Shown: one piece after another, positions 3,327 to 9,915 of the stretch
Numbering within the stretch: position 1 is the first letter of the stretch
How the letters are laid out: every line of letters begins with the position of its first letter
Virus genome (UHGV): UHGV-1522278
Direction: 5' to 3' (one strand)
DNA: 54,320 nucleotides
DNA from: a virus
Notes under the pieces: generated by a model
Database searches by the model: none
Told to the model about the DNA's origin: nothing
The model's input: the letters and a program-made list of their open reading frames with translations, nothing else
Made by a program: the position numbers and the translations under genes

Positions 3327-3880
3327 AATTCCAACCCCGTTTCTCCGTTAAGTTTTTCAATCTCAAATACTGGTTTATCAGGTAGCAGGTAGTTATTTTT
3401 CCGGTACTCGTTCAGGCGGCTGTCAAAGTCAAACGCCAAATCATTGGCGTGACCGAATCGCCCAGGTTTAAACAGTGAGTAAAAATTAACCCCATGCCTA
3501 TTTGGATCAACGCAAAGCGTTTCATCAATCACCATTAAACGCAGAGTACGAGAAAGATAATTCCACGGTATACCCGTTTCAGCGCTAATGTCGCGCATAC
3601 GCTTTTTAACGCTGTAGTCACCAAATAACGACGCGACACGCTCACGACGTTCAGCATATAACTGTTTAATACGATAACCCAGCAGGCGGCGGCGGCGTCC
3701 AAAGCATGTATACACGCGCTCGACGATGCCGTTTTTTATTAAGTGTTTAATTGTCTCAGGCATGATTCCATACTTATCATACCCAGCCAATAACCCTGTT
3801 TTCTGGCGTAACTGGTGCATTGTTGCGATGCCATCAAGTTCAAGGATATTGATAATTTTTGTTTCAATTTCAGCGCTCAT
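3323..3880 (-). CDS. hypothetical protein
   Basis: 185-aa ORF downstream of the helicase gene in the same operon. Confidence 0.55.
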   Translation of the reverse strand: MSAEIETKIINILELDGIATMHQLRQKTGLLAGYDKYGIMPETIKHLIKNGIVERVYTCFGRRRRLLGYRIKQLYAERRERVASLFGDYSVKKRMRDISAETGIPWNYLSRTLRLMVIDETLCVDPNRHGVNFYSLFKPGRFGHANDLAFDFDSRLNEYRKNNYLLPDKPVFEIEKLNGETGLEL

Positions 3881-3956
3881 TTTTAGCCTCGTTTAAAACG
3901 CGATAACAGCCACCAGAAAGCGGTAAACTTTCCGGTAAGCCGTTTGCTCAGATTAA

Positions 3957-5372
3957 TTAAAAAGATGTGTTATTCTGATTGTTTCGTTGGTTAAAACGGC
4001 TTGTGCGATGATTCATTGACTGAATACACGCGGCGGCGGCGCGAGCCTGGTCGCATGGCAAGATATTACCGTTGTCATCAAACCGCTGGTAAACAGTTCC
4101 AGACTTACCATGACGGTTTTTTGACACAATGATTTCCATATATTCGCGGGCAACAGACTGTTCATCGTAATATCCATCTCGGTAAACCATGATTATCCTG
4201 TCGGCATCTTGCTCAAGGTTGCCAGAATCACGAAGATCAGAATTGTTAGGGCGCTTGTTCGGTCGTTCCTCAACGCGGCGTGACAGTTGCGCCAGCGCCA
4301 ACACTGGTACACGCAATTCTTTCGCCATCATCTTCAACGACCACGACAATTGCCCTACAGCGAGATCGTGACGTTCGGCCTTAGCCAGCTTCATTAACCC
4401 GATGTAGTCAATCATTACCATGCCCAAATTTGGGTGATCCTGTTTCATGCGTTCCGTTGTTGCGCGTATTTCCTCAACCGTTAACTGCGACGCGTCAACG
4501 ATCCACACATCAAGGTTAGCAAGTGCGCTCATGCCCTGGCCGACATGCGCCCACCCCTCATCATCAAGTTTTACCGGATTGCGCAGGCAGTCGGTTGATA
4601 AATTACCAGCGCCAGCGATGGCGCGTTCAGTCATCTGATCGAGTGACATTTCAAGCGTGAAGAACAAAACGCCAACCCGCTGATCTTTACTGCCAGGGTA
4701 AGGGCGTTCAGCGGCAGCGCGGGCAATTGCAAGCGCCAACGCAGATTTACCAGACCCAGGACGTCCAGCTAAAAGCACCAAATCAGTAGCGTTAATGCCG
4801 CCCAACATCTCATCGAGTGGATCTATCCCTGTTTTGATGTTGTCAGAATTAACACCGCATTCCATGCGCTTGCTTAAAACGTCCGTATATTCCTGTACCG
4901 CATCACGCAACAGAACAGGAATGATCTTATCTTTCGTTACCTTTAATTTTGAATACCGGGAATCAAAATCTTTCATCGTCTCTTTGACGACCTCAAGCGT
5001 CCCCGTCTCCAGTTTGTAGCGCATATCGTCGATGAGTTCCAACATCTGCCGCCGCTGGTGCTCTTCACGTAGTAGCTGTGCGTATCCCTTAAGGTTGGCA
5101 GCAGAAGGGCACGAACGCGCCGTTTGCATTAGGGGCACGAAATTTTCATTGCCAATCTCATCGCCAACAAGCAATGCGTCTATCAGATTCCTGTTTCTGG
5201 CTTGCGCCCGGATAACTTCAAACGCACGTTTATAAAGCGGGATCGTGAACACTTCAGGATCAAGCGTGGCGAGAACATCTTGCGCGTTAGGAGTAAGGCC
5301 ACCCAACAACAGCCCGCCGATAACTGACGCCTCACGTTCCTGCCGTAGTGAGTTTATTTGCTCAGTTACCAT
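3957..5372 (-). CDS. replicative DNA helicase, DnaB family
   Basis: 471 aa; Walker A GRPGSGKS and DnaB-like N- and C-terminal regions. Confidence 0.9.
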   Translation of the reverse strand: MVTEQINSLRQEREASVIGGLLLGGLTPNAQDVLATLDPEVFTIPLYKRAFEVIRAQARNRNLIDALLVGDEIGNENFVPLMQTARSCPSAANLKGYAQLLREEHQRRQMLELIDDMRYKLETGTLEVVKETMKDFDSRYSKLKVTKDKIIPVLLRDAVQEYTDVLSKRMECGVNSDNIKTGIDPLDEMLGGINATDLVLLAGRPGSGKSALALAIARAAAERPYPGSKDQRVGVLFFTLEMSLDQMTERAIAGAGNLSTDCLRNPVKLDDEGWAHVGQGMSALANLDVWIVDASQLTVEEIRATTERMKQDHPNLGMVMIDYIGLMKLAKAERHDLAVGQLSWSLKMMAKELRVPVLALAQLSRRVEERPNKRPNNSDLRDSGNLEQDADRIIMVYRDGYYDEQSVAREYMEIIVSKNRHGKSGTVYQRFDDNGNILPCDQARAAAACIQSMNHRTSRFNQRNNQNNTSF

Positions 5373-5390
5373 TATGTTATTTCCTCCGGT

Positions 5391-6509
5391 TTACAAAATG
5401 GAAAATTCAGGGTAATAAACAAAGCGCCCGATCTCACCATGATCCGGGCTGTAGATGATAACCGCCGCCAGGCGACGCGACCGCCATCCGCCATTAGTCG
5501 AATAAGCATCCTTACCGGCTAACGTGCCGTGGTGCTCAACAATTCCGAGCGACGTTTCAACGACTGATTGATGGTGCAGATGTCCAGTGTGCGCGTAAAC
5601 AGCAACCGACTTCCCGAAATCCTCGCGCCAGTCAGAGACGCAAGCAGCCAATAAATTTTCAGGCTTTTTGATAGTGTGCCCGTGGTGGTAAGCGAGAAAT
5701 GTTTTACCGTACTGCGTGTGGTGAACGATAGCAGGTGACACATCAACCGTCACACGCGGTTCATCTTCGTAAAAAGCCGCCAGCGCCGCACGTAACCAGA
5801 TCATCCCTGACTGATCGTGATTGCCTGATAACACCTGGATTTCAATATCCTTATGATTTAACAACATCTTACCTACAGCACGCCGGACAGACCTGATCGC
5901 TACATAGACAAGTTTTGCATAACGACTATCTTGATCAAGAATGTGCCCGCTTGTTGGCGTAACCGGGACCATTCCATCAGAATGAAGCAGGTCGCCACCT
6001 AGAAGCAAAACGGCTTTTTCAGACATCGGCGCGGCGCCCACAGCGTAGTCAAAGAAGTCATTCAACACGCGCTCAGCGATCCCGGTGTCGTAGCTCTCGC
6101 CGCATTCTGCTTTGTGAGCAAGTGCGCCGATATGCAGATCAAATACCGGATAAAGGGCCAGGCTTTTTTGGAAATCAATTTCCGGCACTGGCACGGCCTC
6201 CGCGCGTGGTATTTCTTCCGTGAATGCGTCGCGGGCCGATTCCATTAGCTGTTCCATTTCATCGCGGTCACGGGCTGTTTTAATCCAGCGCATGATCACA
6301 TTGCCGTTCTTATCGACTAGCAACGACTCGCCATTGACGCCAAAACCAGGCGCGCGGCGTGTTGACAATAAACCGCGTTTCGCCAGTTTTGCCCCCAGGC
6401 GCTCTACGTTGCGTTTTGACATGCCGTACTTTTCAGCGATCTGCTTGTACGTTAAACCGTTGTTATATTCAGCGATCAATTGCTCATCGCTTATCTTTCT
6501 TTGTGACAT
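5391..6509 (-). CDS. HTH domain fused to a calcineurin-like metallophosphoesterase
   Basis: 372 aa; N-terminal HTH (LTYKQIAEKYGMSKRNVERL); phosphoesterase motifs DLH, GGDLLH, GNHD, HHGH, GHLHH. Confidence 0.8.
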   Translation of the reverse strand: MSQRKISDEQLIAEYNNGLTYKQIAEKYGMSKRNVERLGAKLAKRGLLSTRRAPGFGVNGESLLVDKNGNVIMRWIKTARDRDEMEQLMESARDAFTEEIPRAEAVPVPEIDFQKSLALYPVFDLHIGALAHKAECGESYDTGIAERVLNDFFDYAVGAAPMSEKAVLLLGGDLLHSDGMVPVTPTSGHILDQDSRYAKLVYVAIRSVRRAVGKMLLNHKDIEIQVLSGNHDQSGMIWLRAALAAFYEDEPRVTVDVSPAIVHHTQYGKTFLAYHHGHTIKKPENLLAACVSDWREDFGKSVAVYAHTGHLHHQSVVETSLGIVEHHGTLAGKDAYSTNGGWRSRRLAAVIIYSPDHGEIGRFVYYPEFSIL

Positions 6510-6543
6510 AGTGTCATTTCCTCACGAATAACAAATTGTATAC

Positions 6544-7284
6544 TTAGTTACAAGTTAAAAGCTCAGTGATCCATACTTGTCCTTTAGCAGTGAATACAGC
6601 CTGCTCATATCCATCGTGAGTTACCCTCATTTCACCGTAGCCCTCATCAATAAACCACTGACTGAATACACGGCGGCGACAGCGAAGATCGTAAACACCA
6701 ACCGCCGAAAGTTTTCTGTTTAATTTTACGGCTGACATTCCCAGCGGTTTAGCTACCTCTGAAGCCGTTCGGTGCATATCGTTTTTGACTATCGCGTCAC
6801 ATACAGCCGCTTTCGGAGCCAGCACCTTGTTTTCAAGCGTAAGCCGTTCATTTTCTTTCTTAACTAACAATTTTTGCTCAACCTCATCCGCCCATGCGCG
6901 GGCTGCCGCAACCGGATCAGTGAAATCCGGCAAAGCTAGTTTGTGTTGCGCCTCCTCCAACTCTTTAACGCGTTTAATTACCTTCATGCGTTGCTTAACG
7001 TCATAGCCAGTGATCAAGCACATTGTTAGCTCTTTATTTAGCAAAACCTCATCAATGACGTTGCGACCTTTGTACTGCTTGTACTTAAACAAAAACCCTA
7101 TAAATTCAAAATCCTGCATTTTTGCAGGATAAAAATCATGTTCAGTAAACCCTAAATCTAGCAGCATGTTTTTAATATCACGCACAACCACAGAAGAATG
7201 ATCCTTGTCTGTTGCTTCTGCTATTTCACGCGATGAAATCATTAATACTTCGCTATCGACATCAAAAACCATCAATTCAGACAT
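6544..7284 (-). CDS. antirepressor-like protein (Rha N-terminal + KilA-C/ANT C-terminal domains)
   Basis: start set at the ATG at 7284 with GGAGA RBS; Rha-like motif ISSREIAEATDKDHSSVVRDI. Confidence 0.75.
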   Translation of the reverse strand: MSELMVFDVDSEVLMISSREIAEATDKDHSSVVVRDIKNMLLDLGFTEHDFYPAKMQDFEFIGFLFKYKQYKGRNVIDEVLLNKELTMCLITGYDVKQRMKVIKRVKELEEAQHKLALPDFTDPVAAARAWADEVEQKLLVKKENERLTLENKVLAPKAAVCDAIVKNDMHRTASEVAKPLGMSAVKLNRKLSAVGVYDLRCRRRVFSQWFIDEGYGEMRVTHDGYEQAVFTAKGQVWITELLTCN

Positions 7285-7651
7285 TGTATTTTCTCCGTAA
7301 AACGCGCTACAACGCAAAAATCCCACCGCGTAACCCGTTTGCACAGGTTGCAGTGTCTTATTGCGTTATAGACGCTCTCAGGTGGCTAATTTTTGATTTA
7401 CAGGATGGTATGAAGGTTATAGATTGACCAGAAGGAACAAACCGCCGAACAAAGCGACGTTAACGGCGATTGCAGCAGCGATGGCAAAAGCCAGGGCAAA
7501 AACGTGTTTACCGTCCATTTTGAAATCCTCTCTAAAACGCTCTCTAACGAGATAAATAGCTAAAGGTATGCAAGTGTAGCACTCAATGCTTTTTAGCTCG
7601 CTGGTGAGCTTGTTTTGCGGGTAATTTTGTGTTTTTGCGTATCGTGTTTGG

Positions 7652-8704
7652 TCAAAGAGCGCCACATCGTGTATCACGTAGCGTTTTTGGTTTAAGCAGG
7701 AAATCAAGTGTCGCAGTGAAGCCATCGCCGAAGTAAAAATCTGAAGCATTGTTTTTGAACGTTTCAAAGTAGGCGACAAAGCCGTTAATGCTTTTGTCTT
7801 TCAGGTAGTCAGTGAACGCATAAATCTTGCGTTCAAGATCCCGATCCAGTTCGGCAGGTGGCAACATGCCATCAAACGTGCTGTTAAATGCCTCCACTAC
7901 GTCGGCAGCGTTTGCAGTGGCTGACAGTTTGCGCCATTTTTCAGCATCAGCCAGATACCCATCAAATTTAGTCACCCGGCAAATGTTTATAGGCTTAGGT
8001 GTTCCACCACGGCTACGCCATTGCGTTAAAGCCCACTCAATCACTAATGTGATCTCATCCTCCGTATACGCTTTACGTGTTTTTGTTTCTGTCAGTAGTT
8101 CTACGAATGGCTTAGCATCACGACACTTGCATCCTGCCTTGTCGTTGTAGAAGGCCAGACAACGCAACGCCGCTTCGTTTACGCCATCCTGACTGACCGT
8201 TTTTTGTTCATTTTCGACAATACACGAAGTGTATATATCTTTTTCTCTTTCTTCTTCTTCTTCTAATTCTAATTCATGACCCTTTCCTGACCCTGTCATG
8301 ACCCTATCATGACCTTTTTGTGTTTGATTGATTAGCTTTTCTAATTTTAATTGCTCCTTAGCTGTGTTTATTGCTGCCCTGTATGCGCTTTTAGAAGTCA
8401 TTGATTGGTCAAGCCTTTTCAATAACTTTAAACAAGTTATGTGGCCCTGAGAACATTCGAATAAACCAATTTCGATAAAGTATTTCATCATTTCTTCTAT
8501 GCGCTTTTCAGTAGATCCTACGTTTCGCGCAATGATTCTTGCATCGTGTCGAAGGTCAAAATTAAGGTTGTGCTGATCTACGTCGTAAGTTATCAGTTCG
8601 AGGCAATACCAATAAAGACCGTAACCTTCCAGGCCATAATCTAATAAAACGTTTTGAAGTTTTTCATCGCGGTTCGCATCGCTATCATGCTTAAACCACT
8701 TCAT
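7652..8704 (-). CDS. phage replisome organiser / replication initiation protein (DnaD-like N-terminal domain)
   Basis: N-terminus MKWFKHDSDANRDEKL...GYGLYWYCLELI resembles the Lin1244-type replisome organiser domain; start 8704 chosen for GGAGGA spacing and ATGA coupling. Confidence 0.75.
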   Translation of the reverse strand: MKWFKHDSDANRDEKLQNVLLDYGLEGYGLYWYCLELITYDVDQHNLNFDLRHDARIIARNVGSTEKRIEEMMKYFIEIGLFECSQGHITCLKLLKRLDQSMTSKSAYRAAINTAKEQLKLEKLINQTQKGHDRVMTGSGKGHELELEEEEEREKDIYTSCIVENEQKTVSQDGVNEAALRCLAFYNDKAGCKCRDAKPFVELLTETKTRKAYTEDEITLVIEWALTQWRSRGGTPKPINICRVTKFDGYLADAEKWRKLSATANAADVVEAFNSTFDGMLPPAELDRDLERKIYAFTDYLKDKSINGFVAYFETFKNNASDFYFGDGFTATLDFLLKPKTLRDTRCGAL

Positions 8705-8706
8705 AA

Positions 8707-8961
8707 TCATTCCTCCGGCAACATAACTACATAGACACCACTAAACGCATCAATACGGCAAACAAACCCTTTGCTAATTAATGCGGCGAAGGCATCATGT
8801 ACCGTATGAACAGGAAGTTCACACATTTTTGCTACTTCTTCGCGTGATACGCTTGTCCGCCCCTGGCTATCCGCCGTCTCAGCAAGGGCGATCAAAACTA
8901 GTTTTTGAATCGGGCTGTTAAGTTTTACGTTCCATGCTTTGCTAATTATGTTCATGCTCAT
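8707..8961 (-). CDS. HTH DNA-binding protein, first gene of the leftward early operon
   Basis: 84 aa from the ATG at 8961 with AGGAGA RBS; HTH-like segment SREEVAKMCELPVHTVHDAF. Confidence 0.6.
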   Translation of the reverse strand: MSMNIISKAWNVKLNSPIQKLVLIALAETADSQGRTSVSREEVAKMCELPVHTVHDAFAALISKGFVCRIDAFSGVYVVMLPEE

Positions 8962-9070
8962 CGTGTTTTCTCCTATGGTTAGAGTGAACGCGCTGGCGGG
9001 CATCCAATTAGCATTAGATAGCAGTGACTGACCGCTCAACAGATCCCGCCGTTGCGTGATATTTGTTTTT

Positions 9071-9102
9071 CGCTTCGCAGCGACACCGGATTTTTAAAGA
9101 GC
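9071..9102 (-). promoter_or_regulatory. nut-like site (boxA-like GCUCUUUAA plus hairpin) in the leftward early leader
   Basis: minus-strand reading AGCTCTTTAAAAA then 11 nt then CGCTGCGAAGCG (4-5 bp stem, GCGA loop). Confidence 0.35.
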
Positions 9103-9143
9103 TTTTAAGGTATGTTCCTTTTGTGCTTTCCATTATCTTTTTT

Positions 9144-9159
9144 CTTGCATCCTTGCAAG
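9144..9159. promoter_or_regulatory. operator-like palindrome CTTGCA-tcct-TGCAAG in the divergent immunity region
   Basis: perfect 6-bp inverted half-sites; further half-sites CTGCAAG at 9176-9182 and CTTGCA at 9232-9237. Confidence 0.45.
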
Positions 9160-9267
9160 TATGGACTTACCTTGTCTGCAAGTTTACAGAATGGCGTTAA
9201 CAGGTCAAGGATTGAAAAATACATTTTGTGACTTGCATCAAACTTTTTTAGCTTATAGGGTAGCGAC

Positions 9268-9915
9268 ATGAAAACAAAATGGTATGACTTGGCAAAACAA
9301 CTCATGCGGGCGCAGGGCATGAGTCAGGATTCACTGGCTGATCTCATGGGGATAACAAAAGGCGGCTTGTCGCACTGGCTGAACGGTCGCCGTGAGCCAA
9401 ATCTTGAAGATATTGCGCGGATCATGCGGGCGCTTGGGCGTCGGCAATTCACTGTCACACATGATGGGATGGTCATCGATGATTCTGTTTCTAACACGTT
9501 ACCGGGAGCGCCACCGCGTGATTTAGGCAGTTACCCGGTTGTTGACTGGAAGGACGCAGTAAACAATATGGAAGATGCAAGGCGATCAACATTACCACAC
9601 GTTACAACTAGCGTTATTTGTTCTGATGATAGTTATTGGCTGGTAGCTAAAGGCGAATCAATGAACGCTCCGCAAGGATTGAGTATACCAGCGGGGACGA
9701 TGATACTTGTCGATCCGCACGCGCCAGCTATTGACGGCAAACTAGTTATAGCCCAACTGGAGGAAGGGCAAACTCCTACGTTTAAACAGCTTGTTATTGA
9801 TGGAGGTCAAAGGCTTTTACGTTCACTCAATCCGCTGTATCCACCGATCCCTATGAATCCAGAATCTAAAATCATAGGTGTGGTAGTGGATGCGAAGATC
9901 GTAAACCTGCCATAA
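9268..9915 (+). CDS. cI-like repressor (HTH plus S24 LexA-type peptidase domain)
   Basis: 215 aa; N-terminal HTH (SQDSLADLMGITKGGLSHWLNG); C-terminal S24 motifs GESM and a downstream Lys. Confidence 0.88.
   Translation: MKTKWYDLAKQLMRAQGMSQDSLADLMGITKGGLSHWLNGRREPNLEDIARIMRALGRRQFTVTHDGMVIDDSVSNTLPGAPPRDLGSYPVVDWKDAVNNMEDARRSTLPHVTTSVICSDDSYWLVAKGESMNAPQGLSIPAGTMILVDPHAPAIDGKLVIAQLEEGQTPTFKQLVIDGGQRLLRSLNPLYPPIPMNPESKIIGVVVDAKIVNLP

Follow-up and report, generated by a model that had tools for sequence, protein, structure and literature searches.

The virus genome UHGV-1522278 (54,320 nucleotides; the whole stretch is referred to here as the window) encodes on its minus strand, at positions 5391..6509, a protein of 372 amino acids (aa) that carries an N-terminal helix-turn-helix (HTH) in front of a calcineurin-like metallophosphoesterase (MPE) domain. 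There is, in our judgement, about an even chance that this protein (the target) is a DNA-tethered, Mn2+/Mg2+-dependent nuclease of early phage DNA metabolism, and not a helicase loader. A nuclease is favored by the invariant catalytic residues, by motifs II and III of the Mre11 type, by an HTH that is found family-wide, and by the exonuclease labels of the protein families PHROG 704 and PHROG 284. It is also favored by the neighbors of the gene and its relatives, which are DNA and nucleotide enzymes (HAD_PNKP, deoxynucleoside monophosphate (dNMP) kinase, MazG-like and HD proteins, Holliday-junction resolvase, HNH, DnaB, and NinB). Finally, it is favored by parallels in other phages, in that the T5 protein A1 degrades host DNA, relatives of A1 have an HTH, and the gene with which phages T1 and TLS degrade host DNA is unassigned.

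Taken alone, the protein of the window is a typical representative of a family already catalogued and changes little. The interest stems from the family, PHROG 704, which is abundant, occurring in ~4% of sequenced phage genomes, which is a persistent core gene of T1-like phages, often with homing endonucleases adjacent, and which can be tied by hypothesis to the host-DNA nuclease of T1. Two published gaps touch this family: the host-DNA-degrading gene of T1 and TLS (PMC11447400) and the in vitro activity of T5 A1 (bioRxiv 10.64898/2026.04.02.716235), the latter being the only comparable phage metallophosphatase with a phenotype.

The Gene and its Metallophosphoesterase Domain

The coding sequence (5391..6509, minus) is a complete open reading frame (ORF) of 372 aa plus stop, running from ATG to stop, as given by the ORF list, the translation, and the match to PHROG 704. 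A Shine-Dalgarno-like GAGGA, read from the sequence, lies 9 nt 5′ of the ATG (6519..6523, minus). The conservation of the gene across thousands of phage genomes rules out a chance ORF. In a scan of positions 3800-9400, no terminator-like site was found between this gene and its neighbors, and the promoter and terminator counts were those of shuffled sequence. The same-strand gene order and the lack of a terminator-like site toward the neighbors place the gene in an early rightward-type operon.

The MPE domain comprises aa 114-372 and extends to the C-terminus (5394..6170, minus). It contains, in order, the MPE motifs DxH, GDxx[DH], GNH[DE], H, and GHxH, which supply the di-metal ligands. Motif I is D124-L-H126, within FDLHIG (6132..6140, minus), and is invariant in alignments A1, A2, and A3. 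Motif II is G172-D173-L-L-H176, within GGDLLH (5982..5996, minus), and has the Mre11-type form GDxxH; D173 is invariant and H176 is conserved in at least 90% of sequences. In motif III, G229-N230-H231-D232 (GNHD; 5814..5825, minus), N230 and H231 are invariant, and in motif IV, H275-H276-G277-H278 (HHGH; 5676..5687, minus), H276 and G277 are invariant and H278 is conserved at 90% or more. Motif V is G309-H310-L-H312-H313 (GHLHH; 5571..5585, minus), in which G309 and H312 are invariant and H310 is conserved at 90% or more.

Conservation was assessed in 25 close relatives and in 54 diverse representatives at 30-57% identity. Eleven metal-ligand or catalytic residues (D124, H126, D173, H176, N230, H231, D232, H276, H278, H310, and H312) are invariant in the close relatives, and in the diverse ones each of them is either invariant or conserved at 90% or more. 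An earlier reading of the window from its letters (the sequence-only reading) had described a 372-aa ORF at this position with the motifs DLH, GDLLH, GNHD, and GHLHH. The ORF and all four motifs are present, together with HHGH as an additional one and with the minus strand, which that reading left unstated.

Two further conserved segments are specific to the family. The first, V183-TPTSGHILDQDS-R196, lies 3′ of motif II (5922..5963, minus) and has the consensus VTPxSGHxLDxDxR; T184 is invariant, and L191, D192, D194, and R196 are conserved at 90% or more. The second, K333-DAYSTNGGWRSR-R346 (5472..5513, minus), has the consensus KDAYxxxGGWxSxR, with D334 and G341 conserved at 90% or more. Both loops (aa 183-196 and 333-346) may help to define the substrate site.

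Neither PF00149 nor PF12850 of Pfam matched the target even at E <=10, whether the full protein or its C-terminal 269 aa were searched, and weak matches to these models were obtained in only 10 and 8, respectively, of the 54 diverse relatives, since the Pfam models fail to cover so divergent a family. NCBIfam likewise gave no Metallophos match to the target. The MPE domain call therefore comes from structure and from PHROGs.

Structure Model and Fold Comparisons

An AlphaFold2 model of the target was built on 25 homologues and has a mean predicted local distance difference test (pLDDT) score of 74.7, with values >85 in the core. In the model, three helices within aa 8-44 are followed by a β-hairpin (aa 61-76), a helix (aa 79-97), and an α/β sandwich that runs from aa ~114 to the C-terminus, and the target has the β-sandwich fold of MPEs. 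Of the checks proposed in the sequence-only reading, the domain search gave no MPE match in Pfam, while structure prediction gave the MPE fold, alongside a full-length match to PHROG 704.

When the model was compared with the PDB using Foldseek, structures of Mre11-DNA and Mre11-Rad50 ranked at the top, followed by Rv0805, PolD DP1, YfcE, LpxH, and Vps29, and this ranking indicates that the phosphoesterase call is right. The fold-comparison values were 13.2 for MJ0936, 12.6 for Staphylococcus aureus SbcD, 12.4 for the Pol delta B-subunit, 11.3-12.1 for Mre11, 12.1 for PolD DP1, and 7.3 for the lambda Ser/Thr phosphatase. As modeled, the target belongs with the nuclease and phosphodiesterase MPEs (SbcD, Mre11, PolD DP1, and MJ0936) and far from the PPP phosphatases, in a fold search that cannot split nucleases from small-molecule phosphodiesterases.

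This comparison bears on the idea that the target is a Ser/Thr/Tyr protein phosphatase like lambda NinI. NinI, a PPP enzyme, belongs to the same calcineurin-like superfamily, and some relatives of the target have a comparable early, nin-type position: lambda ninI lies just upstream of the Q antiterminator, and in metagenomic lambdoid-like contigs the PHROG 704 gene lies directly 5′ of a Q-like antiterminator (PHROG 79). A protein phosphatase is nevertheless very improbable, since the target sequence lacks both PPP signature motifs (GDxVDRG and GNHE), its structure is not closely similar to that of a PPP enzyme, and no PPP phosphatase is known to be fused to an HTH.

A second alternative is a phosphodiesterase or pyrophosphatase that acts on small nucleotides, such as cyclic or linear defense signals, deoxynucleoside tri- or diphosphates (dNTP/dNDP), or 2′,3′-cyclic ends, with the HTH serving as an autoregulator or targeting module. 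Nucleotide enzymes (HAD phosphatase, dNMP kinase, and MazG-like and HD hydrolases) are frequent neighbors of the family, and pairs of calcineurin-like and HAD proteins that act on nucleotides occur in bacterial defense (Metis, PUA-Cal-HAD), both of which would fit such an enzyme. We nonetheless consider it unlikely, because a family-wide DNA-binding domain is hard to explain for an enzyme of soluble nucleotides, because the target has no sensor or ligand-binding domain and PADLOC returned nothing meaningful for it, and because of the form of motif II. In Mre11, motif II reads GDxxH, which is the nuclease-type form, and motif III reads GNHD.

The N-terminal Winged Helix-turn-helix

The HTH occupies aa 8-44 (6378..6488, minus), where the model places helices at aa 8-16, 21-28, and 32-44. 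It is followed by a wing β-hairpin (aa ~52-76, with model strands at aa 61-65 and 71-76) and a linker helix (aa 79-97), which together span 6219..6356 (minus). In the target itself, the Pfam matches in this region (aa 10-70) are weak: Rrf2, Sigma70_r4_2, and HTH_IclR were matched at E ~1e-3, all under their gathering scores. A sequence and profile search of PDB chains with the target likewise gave weak HTH matches and nothing else. Among the 54 diverse relatives, a range of HTH models was matched at E values down to 5e-6, and the HTH is a family-wide feature. The fusion of an HTH to a metallophosphoesterase, as proposed in the sequence-only reading, is thus borne out as an architecture, with the HTH better supported in the relatives than in the target sequence.

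Conservation within the family is lowest over the first ~45 residues. Within the hairpin, G69, W75, and K77 are conserved family-wide, and alignments to distant relatives begin at the wing and linker region. The IscR/Rrf2 alignment extends through "KRGLLSTRRAPGFGV", which means that the wing of IscR/Rrf2 aligns with the hairpin of the target. The N-terminal module is therefore best described as a winged HTH, with weak support for the HTH in the target sequence itself.

In two distant members of the family (P0130 and P0132; alignment A3, columns ~60-135), the wing motif PxGfxvKGxSxLxDxxGxxxxxWvKT occurs twice in tandem. This arrangement suggests that the hairpin may be a repeatable binding unit.

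The PHROG 704 Family

The target is a full-length match to PHROG 704, "DNA repair exonuclease", with aa 4-368 aligned to positions 2-387 of the 390-position profile (E = 3.6e-141), and it also matches PHROG 284, "exonuclease" (1.7e-16). The name of PHROG 704 ("DNA repair exonuclease" or "putative phosphoesterase") is an annotation and not an assayed function. Members such as Citrobacter phage Stevie gp37 and mEp021 gp11 are 57-96% identical to the target and share its length, its HTH and MPE architecture, and its motifs. Only the genomic position differs, with DnaB as the neighbor here and a place before the lysis cassette in Drexlerviridae.

The sequence-only reading had regarded the protein as unusual. 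The target is neither rare nor new as an entity, being a member of the catalogued PHROG 704 family. In a tblastn search, matches were found in 2,039 of 50,697 phage records (~4%), 1,955 of which cover at least 80% of the query, and an HMMER scan of 1.84 billion representatives gave 4,457 clusters at 50% identity with E <=1e-3, including 946 with E <=1e-30. In Drexlerviridae it has been reported as a persistent gene, present in 508 of 522 (PMC13164509).

Carriers include the T1-like Drexlerviridae of Escherichia, Klebsiella, Salmonella, and Citrobacter, whose orthologues are 65-67% identical to the target, as well as Guernseyvirinae/Kagunavirus, Macdonaldcampvirus, Rtp, and Vibrio siphophages. 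The family also occurs in an N4-like Vibrio phage, temperate phages of Rhizobium and Sulfitobacter, and phages of Campylobacter and Flavobacterium. Structural relatives are found in BFVD in phages of Lactobacillus, Bacillus, Streptomyces, Cellulophaga, and Roseobacter. The records MG065663/65/67 ("Campylobacter phage A134/A131/A127") and P0049 ("Streptococcus phage MBBL140") encode a member that is 66-67% identical to the target, as in T1-like enterobacterial phages; at 47 kb and 49 kb, respectively, they also match T1-like phages in size, and the host labels of these records look doubtful.

Genomic Neighborhoods of the Family

Genomic context was surveyed in annotated regions of eight phage records and in 80 IMG/VR loci, in which ORFs were called and neighbors were clustered; the search for related loci was seeded with 12 family sequences. 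In this survey, DnaB stands beside the PHROG 704 gene only in the mEp021 group, to which the window belongs. In T1-like phages, the gene closes the early block, directly 5′ of holin/endolysin, and in Kagunavirus it lies in a small island amid tail genes. In the lambdoid-like contigs mentioned above, other neighbors are a Holliday-junction resolvase (PHROG 190) and HNH endonuclease or terminase genes.

The commonest neighbors, found in at least three lineages, are a HAD phosphatase of ~162 aa and a P-loop protein of ~190 aa. The former (c15) matches HAD_PNKP of Pfam (PF25109, 4e-20) and belongs to PHROG 415, which includes the T5 protein Dmp, while the latter matches PHROG 139, "dNMP kinase". 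In several lineages the genes form a three-gene block, in which the MPE gene is followed by the PNKP-type HAD phosphatase and the dNMP-kinase-like protein (L004 6128-7170; L007 1099-1683; L023-L029). Judged by gene order and family matches, this block would give a unit for the processing of nucleotides and DNA ends. The same PNK and dNMP-kinase neighbors have been reported independently (PMC13164509). MazG-like and HD hydrolases occur near PHROG 704 genes in some phages. The common theme of these neighborhoods is early DNA and nucleotide metabolism, and not helicase loading. A direct relationship of c15 to T5 Dmp was considered and rejected; the two share a PHROG, but their pairwise BLASTP similarity is weak and Pfam favors a PNKP phosphatase domain.

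Context also decides on the proposal that the target is a replication-initiation accessory or a helicase loader for the adjacent DnaB. The sequence-only reading had located the gene between a Rha/KilAC antirepressor and DnaB, and Pfam confirms both neighbors; it had further taken this to be the position of a helicase loader. In the mEp021 group the gene does share a transcription unit with an O-like replication protein and DnaB, lying between the two, which speaks for a loader. However, adjacency to DnaB is limited to this group, and the family thrives with other helicases and in other positions. The slot is broken in close relatives by variable cargo and by an HNH gene, and a fully conserved hydrolytic active site is unexpected in a loader. 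No match to the loader families (DnaC/IstB AAA+, lambda P, and SPP1 G39P) was found in the target with Pfam, PHROG, or NCBIfam, and the only DnaC-like signal in the region is DnaB itself (PHROG). The outcome that the sequence-only reading had named as contradicting it, a conventional loader without catalytic residues, was thus looked for, and there is no loader signal and the catalytic residues are intact. To our knowledge, phages with their own DnaB-type helicase, such as P22 (gp18 and gp12), need no separate loader. With no homology and no conserved context, the loader idea was rejected and has hardly any probability left; the adjacency to DnaB in this phage is incidental.

Comparison with Characterized Enzymes

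Mre11 and SbcD share with the target both the fold and the GDxxH form of motif II. DNA binding in the target would come from the N-terminal HTH instead of the capping domain that confers DNA specificity in Mre11 and SbcD. True membership in SbcD/Mre11 was rejected, since there is no capping domain, no SbcC/Rad50, and no profile similarity; PHROG 100 (phage SbcD, including T5 D12) has no match in the target. PolD DP1 and the eukaryotic polymerase B-subunits have an OB-fold before the MPE domain, whereas in the model of the target only a β-hairpin and one helix separate the HTH from the MPE domain. The ORFs examined in the window included no polymerase, and T1-like phages are without a partner polymerase (PMC11447400). 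A proofreading exonuclease or DP1-like subunit was rejected for these reasons, namely the lack of an OB domain and of a phage polymerase here or in T1-like phages. A "proof-reading exonuclease (gp66)" has been listed for TLS (PMC11447400), and it may be the PHROG 704 member of that phage.

T5 A1, a predicted metallophosphatase, is both required and sufficient for degradation of the host chromosome, and its gene is accompanied by those for the DNA-binding protein A2 and the dNMP phosphatase Dmp; an activity of A1 in vitro has not yet been demonstrated (bioRxiv 10.64898/2026.04.02.716235). Both A1 and the target are early phage proteins with a C-terminal MPE domain. A1 (PHROG 1745) is ~180 aa longer, with an extra middle region, and the target has no match to PHROG 1745. 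No HTH was found in A1 itself, while relatives of A1 at 43-49% identity (P0343, P0345, P0346, P0373, and P0385; L089 1706-3376) have an N-terminal HTH at aa ~5-45, several of them above Pfam thresholds. Because A1 relatives also carry an N-terminal HTH, the combination of HTH and MPE is a recurrent phage design, and A2 may stand in for a fused HTH that A1 has lost. Specific homology of the target to A1 was set aside, as the profile signals are marginal, and A1 was kept as an analogue and not a relative. As an analogy, A1 is the closest characterized counterpart of the target.

The target might also be a DNase of host takeover, a functional counterpart of A1 in which the fused HTH plays the role of A2, and which degrades the chromosome outright and, with a Dmp- or PNKP-type phosphatase and a dNMP kinase, channels nucleotides to phage synthesis. 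The phenotype of A1, the HTH of its relatives, and the recurrent neighbor c15, which shares PHROG 415 with Dmp, are all consistent with this possibility. The gene is also persistent in Drexlerviridae, and the re-annotation of TLS describes host-genome degradation with nucleotide reuse in both T1 and TLS and states that no gene has been assigned to it (PMC11447400). On the other hand, the phage of the window is temperate (integrase, CI-like repressor, and lysogens with near-identical genes), and destruction of the chromosome would preclude lysogeny in a phage that keeps a gene of 65-67% T1-like identity in its early replication operon. A Dmp-class neighbor (PHROG 415) is present in several PHROG 704 lineages and is lacking in this window. 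Moreover, homology to A1 can be shown only at the level of the superfamily, and c15 scores higher as a PNKP-type phosphatase than as Dmp. We therefore hold outright host-takeover degradation by the target to be doubtful.

Proposed Function

We infer DNA as the substrate, a dependence on its ends or structures, and the biological role from the features described above, and the nuclease of early DNA metabolism proposed at the outset would work as follows. The winged HTH would position a di-metal phosphodiesterase of the Mre11/SbcD/DP1 type on DNA, and the enzyme would cut or resect DNA ends or irregular structures early in infection. Such cutting or resection would serve recombination-dependent replication, and in virulent, T1-like relatives the same activity would turn cut host DNA into nucleotides, which the neighboring PNKP-type phosphatase and dNMP kinase would then process. 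T4 gp46/47 has a dual role comparable to the proposed resection and host-DNA breakdown, and both it and T5 A1 have comparable roles in their own phages. If the enzyme required ends or structures, this would account for the presence of a 65-67% identical orthologue of the T1-like protein in the early operon of a temperate phage. The sequence-only reading had suggested a nuclease or phosphatase in replication initiation or host takeover; of these, a nuclease is the more likely activity, and a nuclease in host takeover is plausible, while a link to helicase loading was not found.

Several observations weigh against a nuclease of this type. Mre11 and SbcD have a capping domain for DNA specificity, which the target does not, its model ending with the MPE core. 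No SbcC/Rad50 gene was found among the scanned ORFs of at least 250 aa in the window (14 in all; three head-module ORFs, 30455-34208, left out), which match integrase-type, replication, methylase, terminase, portal, and tail families. When the PHROG 704 family profile was compared by hhalign with T5 D12 (SbcD-like), the probability was 0.3%, and with T5 A1, run as a single sequence and as a 26-sequence profile, it was 15-18%, with in-register signals around motifs II-III and the HTH. Reciprocal hmmsearch of PHROG 704 and A1 gave marginal cross matches of 13-15 bits. Both family-specific loops are modeled at pLDDT <50. The PNKP-type phosphatase, dNMP kinase, and MazG-like or HD hydrolase neighbors are all absent from this window, and the temperate nature of the phage and the early-operon position speak against indiscriminate DNA degradation here. 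Literature searches found no functional or biochemical study of any PHROG 704 member.

A broader and more speculative proposal, in which we place rather little confidence, is that T1-like phages use PHROG 704 proteins as the nuclease that degrades the host chromosome for nucleotide recycling; with their fused HTH, these proteins would be an independent counterpart of T5 A1 (with A2). In temperate carriers, the DNA-binding domain would restrain the enzyme to ends or specific structures, so that lysogeny is possible.

The Phage and its Local Gene Order

The target is 92-96% identical to "hypothetical proteins" of the coliphages mEp013, mEp554, mEp515, mEp021 (gp11), mEp044, and mEp010, and the window is an mEp021-like temperate coliphage. 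These coliphages are the mEpimmI group, which has been described as Nus-dependent, non-lambdoid, and temperate, in a paper that does not discuss the target gene (PMC11893012); the window has about the length of a complete genome of this group. Near-identical proteins are encoded in large Escherichia coli contigs (prophages), and lysogens are many. Besides the replication genes, the window encodes integrase, a CI/LexA-type repressor, Erf, SSB, terminase, portal, tape-measure, and J-type tail genes.

The Rha and KilAC antirepressor upstream of the target (6544..7344, minus) matches ANT (8.9e-11) and Phage_pRha (3.5e-9) of Pfam, and the DnaB-type replicative helicase downstream (3957..5372, minus) matches DnaB_C (1.8e-75) and DnaB (5.4e-12). 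The stop of the target gene is 18 nt from the start of DnaB. A 185-aa MarR/Ren-like protein follows DnaB on the same strand, and NinB lies further on.

In mEp021-like phages, the slot 5′ of the target (window 6544-7651) is a hot spot for cargo, occupied by the Rha/KilAC antirepressor here and in four relatives, by a zinc-ribbon protein in four, by a 375-aa protein in two, and by a 51-aa ORF in two. On the other side of the target, an HNH homing endonuclease lies between it and DnaB in mEp021 (L001 8121-8624) and, by annotation, in mEp515 and mEp010; at this site the window has only the 18-nt spacer (5373-5390). The phages with the HNH gene encode a 376-aa variant of the target, in which the C-terminal tail differs. 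HNH genes flank PHROG 704 members in many other phages too.

Two further ORFs of the window were also observed. The first, of 220 aa (1632-2294, minus), is kept in mEp021-like phages (mEp021 gp03) and has no Pfam or PHROG matches. The second, of 120 aa (7417-7779, minus), is TTG-initiated, has a hydrophobic C-terminal tail, and extends into the 3′ end of the replication gene; it may encode a small membrane protein or be a spurious ORF. The replication initiator itself appears to be split (7652-9039, minus): a 110-aa HTH protein (9039..8707, minus), which matches the N-terminal HTH of O-like initiators, is followed with a 4-nt overlap by a 352-aa O-like/Lin1244_N replication protein (8710..7652, minus).

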